A stretch of DNA of 64,000 bases from a virus (taxonomy: Duplodnaviria; Caudoviricetes). The notes below the pieces were generated by a model. That model was given only the letters and a program-made list of their open reading frames with translations, was not told the origin of the DNA and searched no databases. The DNA lies in the IMG/VR virus record IMGVR_UViG_2030936005_000025, positions 1 to 64,000 of that record. One strand, written 5' to 3'. The translations under genes were made by a program, and so were the position numbers. Of this stretch, positions 32,283 to 52,398 are shown piece after piece (the stretch's first letter is position 1; each line of letters starts with the position of its first letter).

Positions 32283-34433
32283 ATGAATAGTCAAAAGACA
32301 GCGTCCGTTGGTGGACGTGACATTTATTTGCGTGCAGACGGTGCGCTGACAGGTGACATTTTAACCGTCGCTTGTTTGATTGTCTGGGCTGATGATAAAT
32401 CACCAATTGAAGGTTTAGATATTTATCGTCGTATGTTGGCGGGCAATGTTCTTCCTTCTGGTGATCTGAGTTCTTTCAATGAGTACTATGATCAACTGAC
32501 CGGTACTTATTGGTTTGATATCAAAGTACGTCCTATTACTGAACCTACTGATGTGGTAATTCAAGCACGTGGGTTTGTTCATGGGACTGAGATTCCCGTT
32601 CTGTTTGAAATGCATATTCCAGGTCCCTCTCCATTAGTGGTGAGTCCAATTACCTTTGACGGTAATATCATGCGTTTTGAAATCGGTAACACTTCAGGTA
32701 AACTGCTTCAGTATCCGCTCTCGGTGAAAGCTGTACGCGAGATCGACGGTAACGCTGCTGCACTACCTTCTAAACAGAAACGCATTCCCTATGCCTTCTA
32801 TACACCAATTAACAACGGCCAGGTAGAAACCTTCGCAGTAATGGGTATGGCAGAAGTGGACGGCGTTAAACACAACTGGGTTGCTCGTACTGAAATCAAA
32901 ACCAATGATGGTGAACTGTCATTGGAGCAGAAAGGTGAAAACCTGCTGGGTGTATCTGTTAAGCTGGCTAACCCGAAAGCCACTACCGAAATTAACTTAC
33001 CCGTGAAGTTTGAACTGGGTGACGGAACTTACGGTATCGCGAATCAGGTTCATGATTATAATCAGATCGATGATGTTGTTTATTTCGACATCCCACTTTC
33101 TGATATCAAAGATCAGACCAGTGTGAAAGTTTCATTCCACCTGAATGAAACCAGCAACAGTAATGCACCAATCTTCCTGATGGGTCAAGCACCGGTAAAA
33201 CGCTGGAGCAATGGTCAGTCTAAAATCAAGATTGAAATTGACAGCCATACTTTCAAGCGCAATGTTGATACCTTATATGCACATGTGTTCTGGGAAGACG
33301 GTACGCCAGTAAAAGGTTTCCGTTTAAAGAACATTACTCCGGAATGTCATTCTGGTGTTAAAGGTAATCAGATCATCTTGTCCCGTAAGTTTGTTCCTAA
33401 TCAACACAAAGAGAATAAACTGACCCTGGGTGCAACGGTTGACCTGACTCCGTTTGGTATCGAAGAAGAAACGTCATTCGAAGACATACTGTCAATCGGT
33501 AGCGACATTCTGCCTATTCGTGTGGTTTCGGGTTTGGGTACAGTGCTGGGTGATGAAGTTCATTTCAATATTGCTGTCCGTCAGAATAACGGTGATATCT
33601 TCAACGATGCCGTACTGGATGTGTTTAACGCCAATGCGAAGATTAAAAATCAGAGCTATGACAAAGACAGCGGTATTGTTTCATTCACTGTTCCCAATAC
33701 TGCGATTAACGTTATTGATGAACGTGCCAATGTGGCAACCAAGTTCACGGTAACAACGGATGAAGCTTTGCAGGGAACGTTTAATGGAACTATCAAAATT
33801 GATGTTCCTTATACCATCAAAGCAGATCTTCCTATTTGGAAATATCGTCGTGACCAACTGACCGGCAGAATTTATATTGATGCAACGTGGGTGTTAAAAG
33901 GTAGTGATGGTAACTATCCAAATACAGCCAACATTGCCGATGTAAAACTCAACGGGATGGGTGTAACAGACTACAAGAAAAGTTACAACCAGTCATTTGG
34001 TGCGTTATCTCTTTCATTCCCTGTTAGTCTTCAGCCTGGTGGCATGCTTTATGTATCTGCTACTGCCAGTGCATCAGGTTTGGGTAATTTCTTTAACCTT
34101 CCTGCTTTGGACAGCCGATATCGTGAGCCAGGTACTGTTCGGTACGTGAATCATGAATTCACTGAAGACAATAAAGTAAAAGTCTTCTTTGATGTTCAGG
34201 GTTGGGATAGTTTACCTCCTGCCGAAGTCCAGATCGAAGATAACTCCTGGAACCGAGTTGAAGGCGTTAAGTATGGGAAGTCGTATTCTGAATACGATCC
34301 AAAGAAAGGCGTGTTGATGGTTCAGTTTGATTTGTTTGATCCGAATGCTCCGGTGTTCAAAGGTGAGACGTCAATGAAGTTGAACTATGCTGACATGACG
34401 ACGTATCCAATCAGTTTCTCCTTTACCAAATAA
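32283..34433 (+). CDS. Beta-rich repeat protein, putative fibre-associated virion protein, 716 aa
   Basis: Recurring Y[DN]xxxG-hydrophobic-F motifs, directly upstream of the giant fibre gene. Confidence 0.6.
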   Translation: MNSQKTASVGGRDIYLRADGALTGDILTVACLIVWADDKSPIEGLDIYRRMLAGNVLPSGDLSSFNEYYDQLTGTYWFDIKVRPITEPTDVVIQARGFVHGTEIPVLFEMHIPGPSPLVVSPITFDGNIMRFEIGNTSGKLLQYPLSVKAVREIDGNAAALPSKQKRIPYAFYTPINNGQVETFAVMGMAEVDGVKHNWVARTEIKTNDGELSLEQKGENLLGVSVKLANPKATTEINLPVKFELGDGTYGIANQVHDYNQIDDVVYFDIPLSDIKDQTSVKVSFHLNETSNSNAPIFLMGQAPVKRWSNGQSKIKIEIDSHTFKRNVDTLYAHVFWEDGTPVKGFRLKNITPECHSGVKGNQIILSRKFVPNQHKENKLTLGATVDLTPFGIEEETSFEDILSIGSDILPIRVVSGLGTVLGDEVHFNIAVRQNNGDIFNDAVLDVFNANAKIKNQSYDKDSGIVSFTVPNTAINVIDERANVATKFTVTTDEALQGTFNGTIKIDVPYTIKADLPIWKYRRDQLTGRIYIDATWVLKGSDGNYPNTANIADVKLNGMGVTDYKKSYNQSFGALSLSFPVSLQPGGMLYVSATASASGLGNFFNLPALDSRYREPGTVRYVNHEFTEDNKVKVFFDVQGWDSLPPAEVQIEDNSWNRVEGVKYGKSYSEYDPKKGVLMVQFDLFDPNAPVFKGETSMKLNYADMTTYPISFSFTK

Positions 34434-46500: not shown

Positions 46501-48549
46501 CCGATCCCAGCTTATTTCGTAGTAGGTGCTGGCGATATGTTCGTTCACACTGGTACAACAAAAACAGCTTCGGGCAAGAAAGGTGATCAACTTGATCTTG
46601 TACTGAATATGTTCCGTTATTCCGGTACGCCGACGACCACAACCCTGACAGATTTGACCGCTGGCAGTACAACAGTTGAGTTCTCCCCTGCAAATGTGAT
46701 TGAACTGGTTCCTGGTTCTATTACAGCGCATGGGTATAAGGTGCGTTTCATCAACACCCTGTATCAAGACACAAATACCCAAGTTACCGCTACTGTGAAA
46801 ACAGCATCAGGTAATGTAAGTTATGTGATTGATGTGACTCAGTTGGCTTCTCCTGCTGCACAGCCTGATGTGGTTGGTAATAACACACAGACTGCTGGCA
46901 TCAACCAGACTGGCACCATGCCGTTTAAACTGGTAGATCCAGACACCCAAGAAGACGTCACTTCTGCCGCCACCGTTACTTCTGTCGACAGTAATCCTTA
47001 TGTCGAGTGGGTTGACGGTAAATGGCGAGTGAAATCAGATGTTTCAGCGGATACCCATTCCGATGTAACATTTAATCTGACGATCACTTACCGCGGCATC
47101 ACCAGTGACATGCATGTTACCACGGACTTCCTGATTAAACCATTCGACGGTGTATTCACGTTTGGTAATGTCGAGCCGATCTCTGGTAACGTGTGGGATC
47201 GTGGTACTGCTATTGACATGGGTATTAAAGTCAACGGCAACGCGATCCCGGTAGATTGGATCACAGGTTATCTGGCGACTCCAGAAAGCAACTACGTTAC
47301 TGTTGGAGCTAACGGTGTATGGCAGATTGTTGCGGGCAGTAAAGACGAAGCAATCACCGAAACTGTAGGTTACACAGCGACTGTTGCTGTTCCAGGAACC
47401 ACCTCTTATCCAGCCACTGTTCAAGTGACATACAACATCGGTAAGTACGATGGGGTTGAATTCAAACTTCGACTCACTAATCTGAACGCGGATGATGTGT
47501 TGTTTGGTCAGGCAGGATTGGCGGCTCGTGGTTATCTGGAAGGCAGGTATCGTAATGATCTGATTGGTGGAACTTCAGGATATGGATGGACAGTAATCAC
47601 TCGCGTGAACTTACATCCGACGACGCCGATTTCAGGTGTTAACCTCAGTGGGTCTTCTAAGATCTATGACTTTAATACTGTTGACGCGCCGGCTGCTCGG
47701 GCACAGAACGTGGTTCGTTTCGTTCGCCCTGGTGGTAAAGATCCTAAGACTGATAACACTGCTGTTAAAGATGTTGACTACGTTGATATGGTTATTCCGA
47801 TCACCACCTGGAAATCCGACACACTCGTAGCTGGTCAGACCCCAGATAAGTTTGAAGGTAAACTGGGTGATGTACTGGATGTGAGAGCCAACGCTTACTA
47901 CAGTAGCACCAGACTCAGTCTTGACTCCAGTGTACTTCAAATCACGCCTGACGCCTCCCTGGGTATTGAGATCGTTCCTGACTCTATCACCGCGGATGGT
48001 TTCAAAGTGAGATTCGTTGCTGACGTAACAGAACAGACAACTGTCGCATCTGTTATCACGTACAAGTACACGAATGGATCTACTACTGGAACGGCTACCC
48101 CAGCGTTTACAGTGGTTCAGAATCCAGGAGATGTCAGTCCTGATGTTAACGCCACCGGCACCATGGCACCTATGAAATACGGCGAGACTGGTAACATCGT
48201 CTTGACGGGCACTGTAGGTTCTGATGCACTGGCTGGTAAAGTCACCTTCGTTCCTGAAAGCAGTGACAATAAGGGACTGGTCACGTTCGGTGATCCTGTT
48301 AACAATGAAGACGGTACAGTTTCTATTCCTGTTACCGCTGACAAAGTTGGTAAAGATAACCTGACTATCCATATTACGGTAAATGGTGCAACCGGAAATG
48401 TCTCTGGCAAGGATTATTTGGATGTCATCGTCGCAGCTGAAGTTACCTATGGTGATCTCGGTGAAGGTGATGGCTTTGAAACCAATGCCACAGGCACGAG
48501 CGGTGAACCTGTAACTGTTATTCAATGGACGTACATGCCAGAAGAGTAA
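34555..48549 (+). CDS. Giant (4664 aa) Ig-like repeat tail fibre or virion appendage protein
   Basis: Uninterrupted 14-kb ORF, AGGAG RBS, Thr/Val/Gly-rich modules of about 100 aa with recurring K[IV]WDxG and [KA][YW]DG motifs. Confidence 0.85.
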   Translation: MAELIKVNKKVINDPLFTPVIAFLKERIANLEINGPEDELALSKQRYDGLVAGDLVIESAVRFPDNVVRVCIISRKTGFARVDLDIKYAKMKDILEDFTVPLVEIEDVDHLKTYVKANSDIEPTLLYLKYKDTYGVLITQDQAKTHEGPMTAFGNLFFENYTTTRESLNSIDWESLECGTVTITDPSFGQGVYPLFIYELVLAEAQLPEITSNLPTSITSRRGETFDIPNTYWFAGTQDITTTATVELSTKLGYANLERSSDLLQIDGETIYGSADQEITDTIVVRVSYDWNGKLVRKNFYIELKIEKDLPSELVITSVPTEVKATSGDIVELTLTAKLRGDKVEILIPPTMLRSQKGFGNLAYVKTNKDLTMVYRGKVNVSWPRDVEQVADLWYAEFSYNDAGTIIKNTAYINSILVKPETLPAFTVTGVPTLLQGYKNQTGKYKPTVMYGEQEIALTQVQIDTGVQGSKQLVDITEVTDAGVSWKLIDDSQTPGTAIRDSFTQTYEWLDPRGVLQTKSFVIQVNVLLDSIVELVPVPPQPRNVVRYQTGGPTFTFMVNGTPRSGLIRTIRVDPIADPKKQYIVNNPKANNQWMVALADETGPVDYTANFTITALVDGVIKTYKFPQEFIIAKYVPGTNDTGSNTGPGGNTGPTDPTSPGGEGNPNSPGSGDGPYNTNIKAEPLSYSIGDKGEKSAKLTFKVLEGTTDITADCHLLTESTVTPSNVSFDNLTYDADNNVFVVDYTKLGKGQSEGAVFACKKADANPAKVDIARIWINTKIGIGDGPPVDDSDPDNPGGGPAPGETGTGPGGSTGPTDPTEPGGDQNPDSPGEGDGPYNADITAVPTSFTIGGESDKNYKMSFKIFQGTEDVTAKSEIMSDYTVLPEFVTLNPITYDATNNVFVMTYTKDKGGESQGAIFAKLKATQNPTKKEIARVWLNVNITQTKILKVINPPKSINLDVGVGNDFPLTVEFSGKEINLLEPGLTIEKTPVTDTRIEVIDLNAILLMNDTWSYVGTTNKEVSGFKLTYVDPEDKKEYTTSFPFDIYVTYPALELKYTGPQEINAKIWDTGTFPIQLIAGTKDFTSSIVATSVVTGKKYVSVNKLDWDVILAESTATSQIVGLNIGWRVGKSSGNFPADFKFNLAAWDGITFAETAHSPEKIEGASGDKGEFTASFIYKGKDATATTKFDKASSTIPDTVILGTPAYDADKGLVIPYELTLGGDFPMTLVFVSPSDPDMTVSINVDTSVAWPDDINIVNKGDNVRGYWNDSVTYPLVINVAGTPVNLTDANLSLNFSSGDDNPIELTEAKETSLILLLAKGGDLGTSYDYTITIDLEYTNQATGKVYNKQIEVPATIRVPDVKATNNPTINANVFDIGKIPVTLVDERGKTIEITKWGLSGAGTNVILMDPSNWYITNGSTIGSVPGELPLRLGYTMGGVERTIDVLEKFTIAKWDGVYFKATTKVVKIEGNGGDTGEIPFEFTYQGLPSVGVTLDRSRSDIPDNIAIGELDDENNLTYTLSGQDEGDLKLCFVRPDAIEPMQEGRDYALVSFSVKTTSTNLPFTLESSDNKVDVDWGKTATVKFVVKYGDKVVPNDTPGLKITLADAAVHGISIQKVTKDGIEIKGIRSDVAGSTKSYAETFNVSYEVGAPEPKQVSFDTTANVSMGAATIFNNNDVKVKIWDTGSFAQVVQFNGITLNTIDHFEIQNSADNKYIEVTPPRGYEVIGAEIATGSQEIPMTVYYRVDGTTELQKLDFKATFTITGSTSVRFKVTPSPTKVEGSLNNESVVRCTPIYKDKPVGGRATFKPALSTIPPQLTLKDFKVVNNDYVITFVGAKGGLATMDLVFWAPDVTDPPKARDVATATFDVKVMGELGLEIGTRDNLLTGKNADTGTYRLQILFGGIPIDAAADIASGNLTATREAGVPSSMNANVITIDKWNAESYDYTLAGCVQPNATVNVSDFINLTYKYGGTNYTRRVEIPLKYTSSTPDFTGWPTAYLKVFSKGTLSPTVKCDGVTINGINSIANYGDTDDAYVTLGGTTKQYEIFNGDTVDITHLVHARVIGLYRNWTWTAEIDIPFNILAWNQRTWDPTLSGAPWSVYMDLTGTATRQVNLTAYYRNGLYSGFSSKTGDLIYRDKTDLLGLVGLDYSAYASATTQFYRMTAKKPGKGTLKLSFRNPESTTVPGKEGVDYTNVDYDVEVKENTLIGSTSGTPTGGNGDTATITLVVRQESNNSQIQNTNQYLEIATVNEDVFKITSKAASTITVLVTAPLSVPDGVVNVPMTFKYTDPNTGFVTKGTFDYPFIIKRPSDYPTVRQTNTVQTYRLFDYGPNPFTVTSEGQNVSAKVIPISCNDTISAGVGTGNQPPYMEMSYNDPVDGNWFWITKVFNVSQSQGRVSEWVIRVPYRGSTVDITARFSYNLYGGTNITEFYVAANQSKFLTMKVGDQVTLPFTIKYRNLAYGKAVFKPDAVATEQGYPTPFSENYKFIKQEYDPSTQLTNITFEVVKLNLNATVPFIFDLKADQTNPVMNSNRGLGFSVAYGLTITPSTDNIWNMWQTRFLSGMVSIKDGSTELVSSCTVLSVSSPLFVQQSTGVNPRFALQSDVAIPAQKLDVVYEIQLPAAYFNTVIKVTIPANINEYDGVEFYIERNGSGPSWPVAAIGSTKVAVDYLWCYYRGSRMTASLIPSQVTSTTAALREKNKDVDGGSGLIWNGMSYNTSSNLQFLSFSSGRQINGKDVVFPIDYKGPGYDNYPVGTKGKNYFEYTVPAAKFYENALYPYPSDKVIDQVQGSKGDRVNVPITFTVGKDFTDNPILPGNLTSWVIINASDLAGVVSKPSSNPNTATGIVLQVNLDNRGDDVLVNVPIRFTYNTTYRGTSINSSVDMTVPLLIKGTGTGDQVVVTPGTFTNSRVWDVSGPALAITVNGVAITYNQITDIQIAPNPYIRRPEVNPNTTSRWFEIYNGKTDGPTQTTATFTVTFNDGARTRTITQDVPITIQKYSGSPWAITVMVPNNPNNTTYNIGLSGYLNSYQNLSLMVYYKNAALTEAFASTIGMDVTAGSFDTPGFSNPTTQQYYYVTAGNTNPGPCFQILFRAGAVDTLEKKAGKIKFGFLNKLTDPNSVEGQDWVYVDVSCLTYVSGKTYIYEQGVTEFTSKYTNPITKVKLPFKIRRDNQMVGLNVTSYNPALSNQGNLALVFNESDVATNITVGFNAELVSQKQQTLDTIVWIGNGQNNTLSAQGVVRATQISNYDFPTVGTVNSVNAQLNQRGGLPFTLKDDSGNDITSTATITAISTNDYVKLDSGQWLCYSVRSADTQIQVTFTYQLTYKGNLLTMKQDVPFVIKPFTGQPTVSDVQVVNGKVWDIGSKIPFTININGNPVPSTWITALTGTSANNRVQVTSLAEPWYIVAGSKDAAVSDTVSYVATVTDGTNTWTVKQDVVFNIAKYDGVELSARILTSGGGNAELQTVFYPYNATSIVGIIFNLYSKGRLVANTGIASLNVGKGLVASGTSASGANATCNIKGNNTVSGNTETSMTVQLTIRGSAATTEGIDILTVTIPVFMVQGTGQLLVHPRTTKAMTGKYGTPVSLDAYLIKYVSEAGSRFVDLTTGNTTITFAPSDVITLVPGSITAQGYKVNFASRLYADTVKDVVVTVTNGGVSKTYTLNTTQLASPADQPDVKDNNGQTASVNQSGAMPFKLVDPDTQEDVTSKATISSIASNDYIELVNGKWYAKKDVATDTHTNVTFTLTLNYRDKDIGMDVVVDFLIKPFDGKFTVTDKKDITAKVWDRGTVPPFGLSVNGNPVPTSWITSWETSPTDTYVAVAANGSWQVIAGDQTKGVTVTVGYAANITVPGGNTTKNVTQVTFNISQYDGIEFKLNLANLQAGNKELQAIFLTYNASSTNGIYFEGRYRGDLVPSPIGVSLSGGYLRIGNGPINGASSVAWAVQPSGAPARGTAAWTARIKRASSAGNIENSDVASLPIPAYFVVGAGDMFVHTGTTKTASGKKGDQLDLVLNMFRYSGTPTTTTLTDLTAGSTTVEFSPANVIELVPGSITAHGYKVRFINTLYQDTNTQVTATVKTASGNVSYVIDVTQLASPAAQPDVVGNNTQTAGINQTGTMPFKLVDPDTQEDVTSAATVTSVDSNPYVEWVDGKWRVKSDVSADTHSDVTFNLTITYRGITSDMHVTTDFLIKPFDGVFTFGNVEPISGNVWDRGTAIDMGIKVNGNAIPVDWITGYLATPESNYVTVGANGVWQIVAGSKDEAITETVGYTATVAVPGTTSYPATVQVTYNIGKYDGVEFKLRLTNLNADDVLFGQAGLAARGYLEGRYRNDLIGGTSGYGWTVITRVNLHPTTPISGVNLSGSSKIYDFNTVDAPAARAQNVVRFVRPGGKDPKTDNTAVKDVDYVDMVIPITTWKSDTLVAGQTPDKFEGKLGDVLDVRANAYYSSTRLSLDSSVLQITPDASLGIEIVPDSITADGFKVRFVADVTEQTTVASVITYKYTNGSTTGTATPAFTVVQNPGDVSPDVNATGTMAPMKYGETGNIVLTGTVGSDALAGKVTFVPESSDNKGLVTFGDPVNNEDGTVSIPVTADKVGKDNLTIHITVNGATGNVSGKDYLDVIVAAEVTYGDLGEGDGFETNATGTSGEPVTVIQWTYMPEE
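36457..37390 (+). repeat. Tandem duplication (about 162 aa period) of a Gly/Pro/Asp/Thr linker plus one domain
   Basis: TGPGGNTGPTDPTSPGGEGNPNSPGSGDGPYN versus TGPGGSTGPTDPTEPGGDQNPDSPGEGDGPYN. Confidence 0.85.
44296..48117 (+). repeat. Three tandem super-repeats of about 425 aa (four modules each)
   Basis: Equivalent Gln codons at 44296, 45565, 46840 and 48118. CAGTTGGCTTCTCCTGCTG is identical at 45565 and 46840. Confidence 0.85.
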
Positions 48550-48581
48550 TAGATCGTATCCCTTAATAAAGGACTTTATGA

Positions 48582-50153
48582 ATGACCACCGCTAACCAAG
48601 TGTTAAGCGTTAACGGTCAGAAGTTAAGTAATAAGGATCCTGATTTGACAATCACTCTGGACGATCATCCGGTCGTCCAGATTTCTTCTATTCAAGAGGA
48701 GTCCATTACGTACTCCTTCTTGACGAATGTCGAAGCAGAAATCTCTTACAACCTTAACCTGACATTTACGTACAAGAACAAATATCGCCTTGTTGTTCCG
48801 ATGACCTTTGTTCACAAAGTGTTCACGGAGAACTTCGTGATTGCACCTGAGTTGTCAGAACTCTCGACAACCACTGATCATGACTTCACCCTTCTGTTTG
48901 ATGCAACGCTAAACGGAACTGGGAATGCTCGTGACATCTCACTGGACACCGCTAACTCGACATTGAGTGCAGGCATCAGTGTGGTTTCTCAAGCAGCACA
49001 GAGTGACACGCAATACCAGGTTGTCCTGAATGCGCAGTCACCGGTTGAAGCCGATAACACCTTCTTGTTCTTAAGAGAAGGGAAAACCGCCGATGGTAAA
49101 GAAGGCAGTGACTTTGCGAAAGCTGTGATTAAACTGGATATCAAGAATGGTATCAACACAGCCACGTGGGATCCTAACTTCAAAGCCGTGGGTGCAGATC
49201 GAAACTACATCCCAATTACCGTTGTTGATAAAGACGGTAATCCGCTGGAAGGTGTCACCATTTCTTCACTGAACATTACTGCTAATCCGCGTAATGGGGT
49301 GTTGAATGGATACAGTAACACGCTCTTAGCAGGGGATGACGGTCAACCGGGTAGTTACAAAATCCGTGTTGATTTGGATCATTTGCCAGGAACAATTACT
49401 GTTAAGTTGGCACTCTCCTTTAACGGGACTACTTTCACTATTCCTGATGAAGTCTTTACGGTCCCAGCCGGTCCTTATACCGTGACCGTGGATCCAGCTT
49501 CTGTTGTTCAAGATCAAACGGTTGATCTGAGTCTGAACATTATTCAAGCACGTTATGGTGACAGTAACCACAAGTTCACTGGTCGCATTACTGCAATTGA
49601 ATCAACTGAAGATTCGATTACTGTTAACACTCCAACGCCTATCACGATTACCGATGGTGTGGCTTCTATTAATGTCACCGGTAAGAATCCTGCTGAAAGT
49701 ACCATTGCGGCCACTGCACAGGAATATGATAGCAATATGGATGTGTGGCGTGAAGCCGGTGAAATTCACATTTATGTGAAGACTATCGCTGCGCCTGATG
49801 TTGAACCAGAAATCCAAGATGGCACCACAGACATGACTCTGAATCTGTGGGATACACAAGCTATCAATTATAAAGTAATGGCAGGTGAAACGGATATCAC
49901 GTCTAGCGTTACGAATGTCACGGATCAAACTGATCCTAACGACGCGATCGAGCTGGTTAAAGTCGACGATACCCACTGGGGCTTCCAAGCCGTTAAAGCA
50001 CGCACTGATGAGGATCTGGTTATCGATGCTATGGTAGATGTTCACGTTATGTATCAAGGTACCGAGCGTGTCATCCCAATGACTATCGATGTGGTAGTGA
50101 AAGCCAATACTACTGGCATTCCTGAAAACCGCTTCAACGTCGAAATGCTTTAA
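48582..50153 (+). CDS. Ig-like repeat fibre-associated protein, 523 aa (starts mid-module)
   Basis: AAGGA RBS. The N-terminus aligns with the distal part of the giant-protein modules. C-terminal GIPENRFNVEML. Confidence 0.8.
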   Translation: MTTANQVLSVNGQKLSNKDPDLTITLDDHPVVQISSIQEESITYSFLTNVEAEISYNLNLTFTYKNKYRLVVPMTFVHKVFTENFVIAPELSELSTTTDHDFTLLFDATLNGTGNARDISLDTANSTLSAGISVVSQAAQSDTQYQVVLNAQSPVEADNTFLFLREGKTADGKEGSDFAKAVIKLDIKNGINTATWDPNFKAVGADRNYIPITVVDKDGNPLEGVTISSLNITANPRNGVLNGYSNTLLAGDDGQPGSYKIRVDLDHLPGTITVKLALSFNGTTFTIPDEVFTVPAGPYTVTVDPASVVQDQTVDLSLNIIQARYGDSNHKFTGRITAIESTEDSITVNTPTPITITDGVASINVTGKNPAESTIAATAQEYDSNMDVWREAGEIHIYVKTIAAPDVEPEIQDGTTDMTLNLWDTQAINYKVMAGETDITSSVTNVTDQTDPNDAIELVKVDDTHWGFQAVKARTDEDLVIDAMVDVHVMYQGTERVIPMTIDVVVKANTTGIPENRFNVEML

Positions 50154-50162
50154 TTTTAAATA

Positions 50163-50180
50163 GAACCTCTTCGGGGGTTC
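50163..50180 (+). terminator. cUUCGg hairpin between fibre genes
   Basis: GAACCTC-TTCG-GGGGTTC followed by ATTCTTTATT. Confidence 0.6.
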
Positions 50181-50204
50181 ATTCTTTATTACATAGAGGT
50201 AAAA

Positions 50205-51449
50205 ATGGATAAGCAACTTACATTGCTTGAAGGTCAGAGTGGTAGCATCAAAGTCAAACCTACTTTCGAAGGCAAGGCAGCTGCAGATAAGGTTGAACTG
50301 TCGCAGTCACTGAGTAACGCGGATATTCTCCAACTGACCTCGGCACCTGTTGCCAGTGAGAACAACACTGTTGCTACTGTCGCCGTCAAAGTGGGTGCGA
50401 TTGCTGATCTGACCGGTAACCTGGTGTTTAAATACACCGGCAATGAATCTGAAGTCGAAAACATCGGCATCAGTACCAAAGAGATCGGCATTAAAGTTAA
50501 TGCTGCTCAACTGGCGACCCAAGAAGCTCCCTCACCAACCAAGTTCAAGTACACGCCGGGTGCCCAGCTTGTTATCAACGTTCTGTATAAGAATGGCGAT
50601 GAGAATCTGGAAAACACCGATCCACATCTGAATCTGTCTGTGGGTGACTCTGTGTTGGAACTGGTGAGTCGTGATGCGACTGGCGTGACTTTGAAAATCA
50701 AAGACGACGCTGATCCAGCCACTGCTCCAGGTGTTCTGCAACTTCTGGCAACTTACTACTCCGGTAGTTCAAGCACTGACTTGACTCTGGTTGCTAAACC
50801 AAACCTGACTATCGAGACCACTCCACTGAGTCTGACCAATGGTGAAAACCATGCGTTCCCAGTTGTGGTTAAGAAGGGTGATGACGATATTACTTCTTCT
50901 ATCACCAACATTCAGGCCACCGCGGATGAATACTTCACTGTTGATGCCAACGGTAACATCACTGTTATCAAAGCAGATACCGCTGAAGTTCAACGTACCA
51001 TCCACTACACCTTCGACTACACCGAAGATGGTCTGACCTGGACCTACACTGCTGACGTTACTGCGACTATCGCAGCGACCGAAACTCCTGACCAGTTCTC
51101 GCTGACCGATGTGTCAACGCCACTGACGATGGATCTGTGGGCTAAACAGACCCTGAGCTACAAAGTGATGGACGGCGAAACTGATGTTACTTCAAGCGTG
51201 ACCTCTGTGACTGTTAGCAATGCTGACGCGATCAAAGACAAGTTCGAAGTTACTCAGGACGGCGTTACCACGACCTTCCAGTCTGTTAGTTCTAGCAGCA
51301 CTGAGCAGGTTACCGCGACAGCTAACGTTGTTATCGCTGGTACCTACAACGGTCAAGAGTTCAGCCTCCCTGCTGACATCAATCTGGTTACTAACGTTAA
51401 CGACGGTAGCATCCCTACCAACCGTTTCGACGTTCAGATGGATCAGTAA
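50205..51449 (+). CDS. Four-domain Ig-like protein, 414 aa
   Basis: GAGG RBS, N-terminal LLEGQSGSIKVKPTFEGK, C-terminal GSIPTNRFDVQM, high-expression codon choice. Confidence 0.8.
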   Translation: MDKQLTLLEGQSGSIKVKPTFEGKAAADKVELSQSLSNADILQLTSAPVASENNTVATVAVKVGAIADLTGNLVFKYTGNESEVENIGISTKEIGIKVNAAQLATQEAPSPTKFKYTPGAQLVINVLYKNGDENLENTDPHLNLSVGDSVLELVSRDATGVTLKIKDDADPATAPGVLQLLATYYSGSSSTDLTLVAKPNLTIETTPLSLTNGENHAFPVVVKKGDDDITSSITNIQATADEYFTVDANGNITVIKADTAEVQRTIHYTFDYTEDGLTWTYTADVTATIAATETPDQFSLTDVSTPLTMDLWAKQTLSYKVMDGETDVTSSVTSVTVSNADAIKDKFEVTQDGVTTTFQSVSSSSTEQVTATANVVIAGTYNGQEFSLPADINLVTNVNDGSIPTNRFDVQMDQ

Positions 51450-51459
51450 TTTAACGAGC

Positions 51460-51485
51460 GAGAGGGTTCCGAAAGGAGCCTTCTC
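51460..51485 (+). terminator. GAAA-tetraloop hairpin after the 414-aa gene
   Basis: GAGAGGGTTCC-GAAA-GGAGCCTTCTC followed by CTCTTT. Confidence 0.7.
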
Positions 51486-51507
51486 CTCTTTAACATAAGG
51501 AGGTAAT

Positions 51508-52398
51508 GTGAACGCTAAAGTCAATATTCTAGAAGGACAGACCGGACATGTAAAAGTGACCCCTACGTTTGAAGGAAAGTCTGCACTTGGTAAAGTAGAA
51601 ATTGATTGGAGTAACACAGATATGCGAGGGATGGTGATATTGAATAAATCAATGTTGCCGATAGACAATGCCAATGCGTATTTGGTCTTGACTGCATTAG
51701 CTACTTCTCAAGGCACGGGAAAGGTGGTGTTTAAGTACGTGGGAAGTAAATCAGATGTAGAGAATGTAGGGACCGCCACTAAGACGGTTGACATTACGGT
51801 TTCTCCTGCGGTATTAAATGTAGTGAGTGTTTCTCCTACTTATATTAAATGGATTCCAGGACAGGAAACCGATATAGCAATAACCTGGGTTAATGGAACG
51901 CAACCTGTATTAGCAACTAACCCATTACTCGACCTATCCACAACCGGAGACAACATTACGATTGTTTCCCGTAGTGAAACAGGAATAAGAGTGAAGGTTA
52001 ATAGTAATGCTAATGCAACGGCACTTCCGTTAAAAGAACAAGTCATTGTGGCCAAGTATTATTCTGGTCAGGCAAAGACGGTTTTGAACTACGCATTGAA
52101 ACCTGCTTTAACCATTACGTTGAATGGAACCATTAACTTGAAAGGTGTGGGTGCTAAGAGCCCGTTCCCGTTTAAGATTATGGACGGAACCAAAGACGTT
52201 ACCAAGCTTGTTAAAAATATCAAAGCCTCTGACAGTTATCTTAAGTTTAATGATGATGGGAGTTTCGTTGTCATTAAGGTGGATCTATTGGCTGTGGTCA
52301 GAACGGTGACTTACACGTTCGATTACGAAGTGAATGGATTAGTGTGGAGCTATACCACCAAAGCAACTGTTACTATAGGCAACCTCATTAATCTTTGA
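51508..52398 (+). CDS. Three-domain Ig-like protein, 296 aa, paralog of 50205..51449 lacking domain 4
   Basis: AAGGAGG RBS with GTG start, N-terminal ILEGQTGHVKVTPTFEGK, Lys-rich. Confidence 0.8.
   Translation: MNAKVNILEGQTGHVKVTPTFEGKSALGKVEIDWSNTDMRGMVILNKSMLPIDNANAYLVLTALATSQGTGKVVFKYVGSKSDVENVGTATKTVDITVSPAVLNVVSVSPTYIKWIPGQETDIAITWVNGTQPVLATNPLLDLSTTGDNITIVSRSETGIRVKVNSNANATALPLKEQVIVAKYYSGQAKTVLNYALKPALTITLNGTINLKGVGAKSPFPFKIMDGTKDVTKLVKNIKASDSYLKFNDDGSFVVIKVDLLAVVRTVTYTFDYEVNGLVWSYTTKATVTIGNLINL

Follow-up and report, generated by a model that had tools for sequence, protein, structure and literature searches.

An Ig-like module divided between two adjacent genes of a jumbo phage and its candidate role in joining large proteins

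The window analysed here is a whole stretch of 64,000 nucleotides (positions 1 to 64,000 of IMG/VR record IMGVR_UViG_2030936005_000025) and is part of a complete virus record of 264,203 bp belonging to a jumbo phage. The nearest named relatives of this phage are Erwinia phage AH04 (Meadowvirus), Pseudomonas phage OBP, Serratia phage Yubaba, Edwardsiella phage pEt-SU (Petsuvirus), Klebsiella phage N1M2, Pantoea phage Survivor and Shewanella phage SXP01. The subject of this analysis is the junction between two neighbouring open reading frames (ORFs) of the window, one encoding a giant protein of 4664 residues and the next encoding a protein of 523 residues (Table 1). Judged from profile comparisons, the last 29 residues of the giant (hereafter the tail) and the first ~84 residues of the 523-residue protein (the N-domain) are successive parts of a single immunoglobulin (Ig)-like module, and they share a strand of nine residues.

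Anatomy of the junction and uncut homologues

The giant ORF ends in ...VTVIQWTYMPEE and is closed by two tandem in-frame stop codons, and an intergenic gap of 32 nt separates it from the next ORF (Table 1). A preliminary description of this DNA, made from the sequence alone, had drawn attention to two CAA (Gln) codons, and its coordinates and reading frames proved correct when the sequence was read again: CAA 48523 lies in the frame of the giant, CAA 48597 lies in the frame of the next gene and the two are 74 nt apart. The stop that it placed seven codons past CAA 48523 is present and is, in addition, doubled (TAA TAG), and the ribosome binding site that it assigned to the second gene is found as AAAGGA ahead of the ATG. 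The giant matched no Pfam or PHROG family. Its distal part contains repeated cassettes that include a module type homologous to the seam module (the module that spans the junction), and all intact copies of this type end in ..V-T-Q. The C-terminal domain of the 523-residue protein ends in a second kind of tail (..IPENRFNVEML), which is described below.

Table 1. Positions of the features discussed in the text (numbering of the window)
Feature	Position	Strand	Remarks
Giant ORF, 4664 residues	34555..48549	+	Chain of Ig-like modules; orthologues AH04 gp197, OBP_207 and the pEt-SU giant
Intact internal module (type compared in the preliminary description)	47821..48138	+	Another copy at 46555-46872 and one more further upstream
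Conserved C-terminal tail of the giant, 29 residues	48460..48546	+	Candidate first strands of the seam module
Tail copy of the duplicated strand, VTVIQWTYM	48511..48537	+	Includes CAA 48523
Tandem in-frame stops TAA (48547-49) and TAG (48550-52)	48547..48552	+	End the giant ORF
Shine-Dalgarno-like AAAGGA	48568..48573	+	8 nt upstream of ATG 48582
Next ORF, 523 residues	48582..50153	+	N-domain, variable middle, conserved C-terminal domain
N-domain, residues 1-84 of the 523-residue protein	48582..48833	+	Candidate acceptor part of the seam module; predicted Ig-like sandwich (AlphaFold2)
N-domain copy of the duplicated strand, TTANQVLSV	48585..48611	+	Includes CAA 48597
Second-type junction, 523- to 414-residue protein	50100-50260
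Second-type junction, 414- to 296-residue protein	51400-51560

The most direct evidence for a divided module comes from relatives in which it is whole. Among the matches of the profile search described below are six giants (P0068, P0074, P0078, P0079, P0080 and P0082) that carry the tail motif directly before the N-domain in one polypeptide. A profile was built from these six uncut seam modules and compared with the tails and N-domains from a sample of 16 distinct phage junctions, seven of them from GenBank records and nine from IMG/VR and assembled runs. The N-domains of all 16 phages matched columns 44 to ~127 of the profile (E-values 1e-20 to 1e-25), and the tails of 14 of the 16 matched columns 11-52 (E-values 1e-10 to 1e-4), with the window's own tail on columns 11-49 (E-value 3e-6). 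This division of the columns identifies tail and N-domain as two halves of one module, as the preliminary description had claimed. The N-domain lacks columns 11-43 of the uncut seam modules, as well as the first 22-29 columns of intact paralogous modules.

The tail and N-domain sets overlap by nine columns (44-52), which correspond to the strand present in both proteins. When the two strand copies were compared in 63 registers, the Gln-to-Gln register was the best (+99, with the next best at +42). The seam falls at the two Gln positions because the nine-residue strand around Gln occurs in both proteins; by this comparison, joining Gln to Gln drops one copy of the duplicated strand, and the join marks a true evolutionary seam rather than a chance agreement in module length. 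The join that had been proposed at the two Gln codons, described as seamless, is thus borne out by the register score and the overlap.

The resemblance of the seam module to an internal module of the giant, which had also been proposed, holds at the profile level. The intact internal module matched the N-domain family (hhalign P 1.6e-4, with module columns 30-107 corresponding to N-domain residues 11-84) and the uncut seam modules of relatives (hhalign P 7e-4, in the register first suggested). It does not hold by BLASTP, in which the N-domain had no significant match in the giant (E-values of at least 0.66), or for the tail on its own (see below). The lead for these profile tests came from a MAFFT alignment in which the intact internal module was placed onto the N-domain; MAFFT also placed tail-only rows onto the N-domain, so such rows were unusable.

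Exactly this seam is found uncut in relatives, which supports an origin of the junction by gene fission. Of the gene-fission relic considered in the preliminary description, the fission therefore stands, but not the decay that a relic would imply: both halves are conserved over several phage genera, and OBP uses the junction twice running.

Conservation of the two halves and position of the cut

At all 16 junctions, a large upstream gene stops 11-32 nt before a gene whose product opens with the ~84-residue domain. The bodies of the upstream proteins are often unalignable, yet they end in a common pattern of ~29 residues, [D/E/N]-F-x-T...G....P-V-T-L-T-Q-x-x-x-L-P-x-stop, in which F, G, Q and P are invariant and hydrophobic residues alternate. 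In the N-domain, Q6 and L8 of the shared strand are nearly invariant, as are a Lys and a His, and an Asn, an Asp and a Thr are invariant. Kept at 16 junctions while the flanking sequences diverge, the pairing of tail and N-domain far exceeds chance. The strand copies within one phage are slightly more alike than those between phages (permutation p 0.027, 17 pairs), although this signal is weak and confounded by relatedness.

Further searches placed the N-domain at the start of proteins of many kinds. A word-seeded search found 18 additional proteins, all 18 with the domain at residue 1, and when 1.84 billion cluster representatives were searched exhaustively with a profile, 56 matches were obtained, in ~47 of which the N-domain begins within the first four residues (one at profile position 9). 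The proteins that carry it at their start span 84 to 3124 residues and are varied in architecture beyond it. In the phage's own 264,203-bp record, the N-domain is present as a single copy. A scan of IMG/VR with the single sequence gave no match and a scan with the profile gave three loci; no loci were found in a scan of JGI metagenomes.

The position of the cut is not fixed among relatives. In two related loci (L018 and L019), there is no cut at the seam studied here; the giant ends ~24 residues later, inside the next module (L018 14040-14200; L019 14060-14230). The giant C-terminus at these loci reads ..V-E-Y-G-K-S-Y-A-x-P-F-K-V..stop and the next gene, which has a GTG start, encodes ..K-Q-S-x-x-V-P-F-x-V.., a strand (..P-F-x-V..) again being duplicated over the gene boundary. 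The gene order at L018 is that of the window: the gene for the small subunit of ribonucleotide reductase, a gene for a ~900-residue protein, the giant and the next gene. At L019, the ~900-residue protein, the giant and the next gene are confirmed, and Pfam gave no hit for the first upstream gene. One seam inside the pEt-SU giant is uncut, and this protein also carries a tail at its C-terminus. In OBP, the studied junction occurs twice in succession (OBP_207, 206 and 205), and OBP_206 has an N-domain at its N-terminus and a tail at its C-terminus, both of the same type.

A second type of junction lies downstream of the first. Its pattern is ...I-P-x-N-R-F-x-V-x-x-stop at the end of one protein and M-x-x-K-x-L-x-L-x-x-G......K-P-T-F-E-G at the start of the next. 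In the window it occurs twice (Table 1): the 523- and 414-residue proteins have the common end ..G-S/I-I-P-x-N-R-F-N/D-V-x-x-stop, the 414- and 296-residue proteins have the common start M-x-x-K-x-x-L-L-E-G-Q-x-G-x-x-K-V-x-P-T-F-E-G-K, and the 296-residue protein is without such a tail. The gaps ahead of the genes for the 414- and 296-residue proteins are 51 nt (50154-50204) and 58 nt (51450-51507), as compared to 32 nt at the studied junction, and the latter gene has a GTG start. The second-type pattern is conserved in 11 related loci, and many relatives have just one ~223-residue protein that bears both second-type ends. In OBP, the pattern is found at 205, 204 and 203, such that OBP_207 to OBP_203 (L021, OBP 178000-203000) are five consecutive genes with matched ends arranged head-to-tail, with two tail/N-domain junctions followed by two NRF-type junctions.

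The proteins of this chain have 4664, 523, 414 and 296 residues in the window and 4079, 1859, 939, 230 and 507 residues in OBP. The same collinear chain is thus divided differently between phages, and the cuts always fall within a module, never at a domain border. The sequence evidence for a conserved, mobile split inside a module is strong.

Separate translation signals of the two genes

The giant and the 523-residue protein carry separate translation signals. An ATG at the downstream start and an N-terminal Met-x-x-x-x-Gln are conserved at all 16 loci, and most relatives have a GGA-type Shine-Dalgarno motif (A/G-GGA) just past or overlapping the stop; in four related loci (L011, L012, L013 and L016), AAGAGAA replaces this motif. 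These signals bear on the possibility that ribosomes bypass the 74 nt between the CAA codons in the manner of T4 gene 60, or else frameshift or read through, and so make a fused giant with a seamless module. Such a fusion would contain the peptide ...VTVIQVLSVNGQK, that is, the join VTVIQ-VLSVNGQK. As in T4 gene 60, two identical codons flank a short untranslated gap in the window, and a module of the right length results when they are joined. Unlike in T4 gene 60, however, the defining features of bypass are absent from this junction or are not conserved. The Gln codons are identical in only three of the 16 phages, and three have Ser, Asn or Ala instead of Gln at the landing position. The Gln-to-Gln distance varies from 50 to 74 nt among relatives, with gaps of 11-32 nt, and frame offsets of 0, 1 and 2 are all found. 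In the window the stop lies seven codons past the take-off site and is doubled, and among relatives the 5-8 residues past this site are themselves conserved (x-h-x-L-P) and include an invariant Pro. Finally, the fold of 48505-48610 contains no significant hairpin (z -1.5). With neither a conserved codon match, an adjacent stop, a stem-loop nor missing initiation signals of the kind seen at T4 gene 60, bypass of that type was rejected, and we regard the production of a fused giant by any of these routes as extremely improbable. The preliminary description had listed bypass as an option and had preferred complementation or fission to it, a preference with which this evidence agrees. A split intein was also considered and was dropped, as residue 2 of the N-domain is not a conserved nucleophile.

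Predicted structure and possible function of the junction

AlphaFold2 predicts the N-domain alone to be an Ig-like sandwich with a predicted local distance difference test (pLDDT) score of 84.5 and block means of 85-96 over residues 11-80. Confidence is low (mean 59) for residues 1-10, where the N-domain has its copy of the shared strand. The model matched cadherin, Rib, intimin and pilin domains (Foldseek probability up to 0.96, with E-values of at least 0.09; VIA Z 4.6-5.6), a weak likeness that points to a generic Ig-like fold only. Pfam, PHROGs and PDB sequence searches gave no family for these proteins. The tail and N-domain were also modelled together as a single chain from L017, a close relative in which the genes are in the same frame, with the stops read as Gly and the tail, an 8-residue natural linker and the N-domain in succession. 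With three tail alignment rows, an artificial linker and a sequence other than that of the window, this model had a mean pLDDT of 55, with the tail at 26-41 and the N-domain down to 71-82. Under the same limits of alignment depth and linker, DSSP marks two strands in the tail, and the tail is not confidently docked, an outcome that speaks neither for nor against docking.

We propose that the tail and N-domain act as a non-covalent plug-and-socket connector by beta-strand complementation between two polypeptides, and on the sequence evidence we give this reading a probability of roughly 60%. The giant and the 523-residue protein would be made as separate polypeptides, with the last 29 residues of the giant supplying the first strands of the module and the ~84 N-terminal residues of the next protein supplying the rest. 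The tail would then dock on the N-domain, either replacing the N-domain's own copy of the strand or lying beside it, so that the full module is recreated and the two proteins are joined end to end without a covalent bond. The connector would be reused or shifted among relatives, the N-domain serving as a conserved socket for very different distal parts, and within the window the two second-type junctions would extend the chain from the 523- to the 414- to the 296-residue protein. Both the physical binding of tail to N-domain and its geometry are what we infer from the comparisons above. Donor-strand complementation was among the options raised in the preliminary description. It is strengthened by a conserved extension of the upstream partner that matches the missing part of the module and has beta-strand character (tails of 14 of the 16 phages, columns 11-52), but the simple filling of a groove is in doubt. 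As one copy of the shared strand is retained in the N-domain itself, the geometry may instead be one of strand exchange or edge addition.

Several points weigh against a connector. In the prediction, the N-domain forms a confident sandwich by itself, including an N-terminal strand of its own, and a donor strand may therefore be unneeded. The comparison of the tail with the intact internal module was not significant (hhalign E-value 0.013) and matched the last strand of that module rather than the first. No family, solved structure or paper names these proteins as virion parts. Also, because OBP_206 carries a socket and a plug of the same type, there may be a question of specificity or self-polymerisation, and of how the order of the proteins is kept.

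Two observations on the N-domain, its confident fold alone in AlphaFold2 and its conserved strand copy with nearly invariant Q6 and L8, are also what would be expected if the junction were a fission scar without contact. In that case, the N-domain would be autonomous and the tail would be kept for another role, such as capping the last domain of the giant or binding another virion protein or an assembly chaperone, and the two proteins would attach elsewhere or not at all. Against such a scar, wherever the tail motif occurs it is accompanied by an N-domain module, which is either adjacent in the same chain or opens the product of the next gene; the cut site shifts between modules yet always lies within one rather than at a domain border; and the partition of the chain differs in relatives with the same gene order. 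We consider a scar of this kind unlikely.

The plug-and-socket connector proposed above may have a more specific form. The poor placement of the first strand by AlphaFold2, together with its conservation, suggests that the joint may work by strand exchange, with the strand in cis displaced by the one in trans. The junction would then be a portable split-Ig connector in which the socket is first self-closed and the homologous C-terminal strand of the preceding protein displaces the placeholder, with a covalent lock in the extreme version. This form is offered tentatively, as one that is possible but not probable. Isopeptide and Thr-Gln ester bonds occur in the Ig-like domains of Gram-positive adhesins, and it is conceivable that the docked tail is locked by an autocatalytic cross-link of either type, as a natural pair resembling SpyTag and SpyCatcher. 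The conservation of reactive-type residues (Gln in the tail; Asn, Asp, Thr, Lys and His in the N-domain) is all that favours such a lock, whereas no cross-link domain family was matched and the same residues may be purely structural, and we think it very unlikely.

The proposed connector can be compared to several known systems. Like chaperone-usher pili, in which an Ig-like fold is completed by the beta-strand of a neighbour, the phage proteins would form end-to-end non-covalent chains. In those pili, however, the donor is an N-terminal extension that provides the missing last strand, and a chaperone and an usher are needed. The candidate donor in the phage is a C-terminal tail that would provide first strands to an acceptor that keeps one strand copy, and the partners are huge, heterologous and made in the cytoplasm of the infected cell. 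Type V pili (FimA, Mfa1) are closer in having a C-terminal donor: the pilin first takes a self-complementing form and, after cleavage, its C-terminal donor strand enters the groove of a neighbour (PMC13655056), much as the socket of the phage protein would at first be occupied by its own strand. Unlike these pilins, which are lipoproteins cleaved by gingipain, the phage proteins showed no cleavage site, protease link, or sequence or family relation to them. The phage junction lies outside any pilus family and would work like donor-strand complementation with giant heterologous partners.

The attachment domains of phage tail fibres and spikes offer another comparison, as the conserved ~84-residue N-domain is followed by a variable distal part and its gene adjoins that of the presumed partner. 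The N-domain differs from them in being one part of a module whose other part is carried by the partner, with a duplicated strand. Interacting partners are usually betrayed by pieces that form one protein in certain genomes and two in the rest (the Rosetta-stone pattern), and the tail and N-domain are likewise collinear in one polypeptide in some related genomes and divided between two in other genomes. Unlike in the usual Rosetta-stone case, the break here is inside a single structural domain, leaves a nine-residue overlap and shifts between modules. No description of split-Ig junctions in phage fibres was found in the literature that was searched, which is not proof of their absence.

The architecture of the chain, together with the combination of a conserved N-terminus and a distal part that varies, leads us to infer a virion fibre. 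The paper on N1M2 reports no tail fibres visible by electron microscopy and the paper on Kc263 mentions visible fibres; both are silent on these genes. Directly upstream of the giant in the window is an ORF of 716 residues (32283-34433) with no family. It is syntenic in relatives (716-938 residues) and lies downstream of the gene for the small subunit of ribonucleotide reductase, and it could be part of the same structure as the giant.

Should the two proteins not bind, the junction is still a clean and documented example of a gene split within a domain, one strand being duplicated. If the proposal is correct, a split Ig-like pair that assembles by itself and has a placeholder strand could serve as a tool for joining proteins. 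For the phages themselves, a connector at these junctions would explain how chains of ~6000-7600 residues are assembled from several genes in these jumbo phages and why the partition of the chain varies so much among relatives. Five "hypothetical" genes of Meadowvirus, Petsuvirus, Nimduovirus and unclassified relatives would gain an order of assembly, and the N-domain would be the constant socket beyond which the distal parts, which probably bind the host, are exchanged. If strand exchange is the mechanism, fibres of thousands of residues would be built from interchangeable gene-sized segments whose cut sites can be freely moved.

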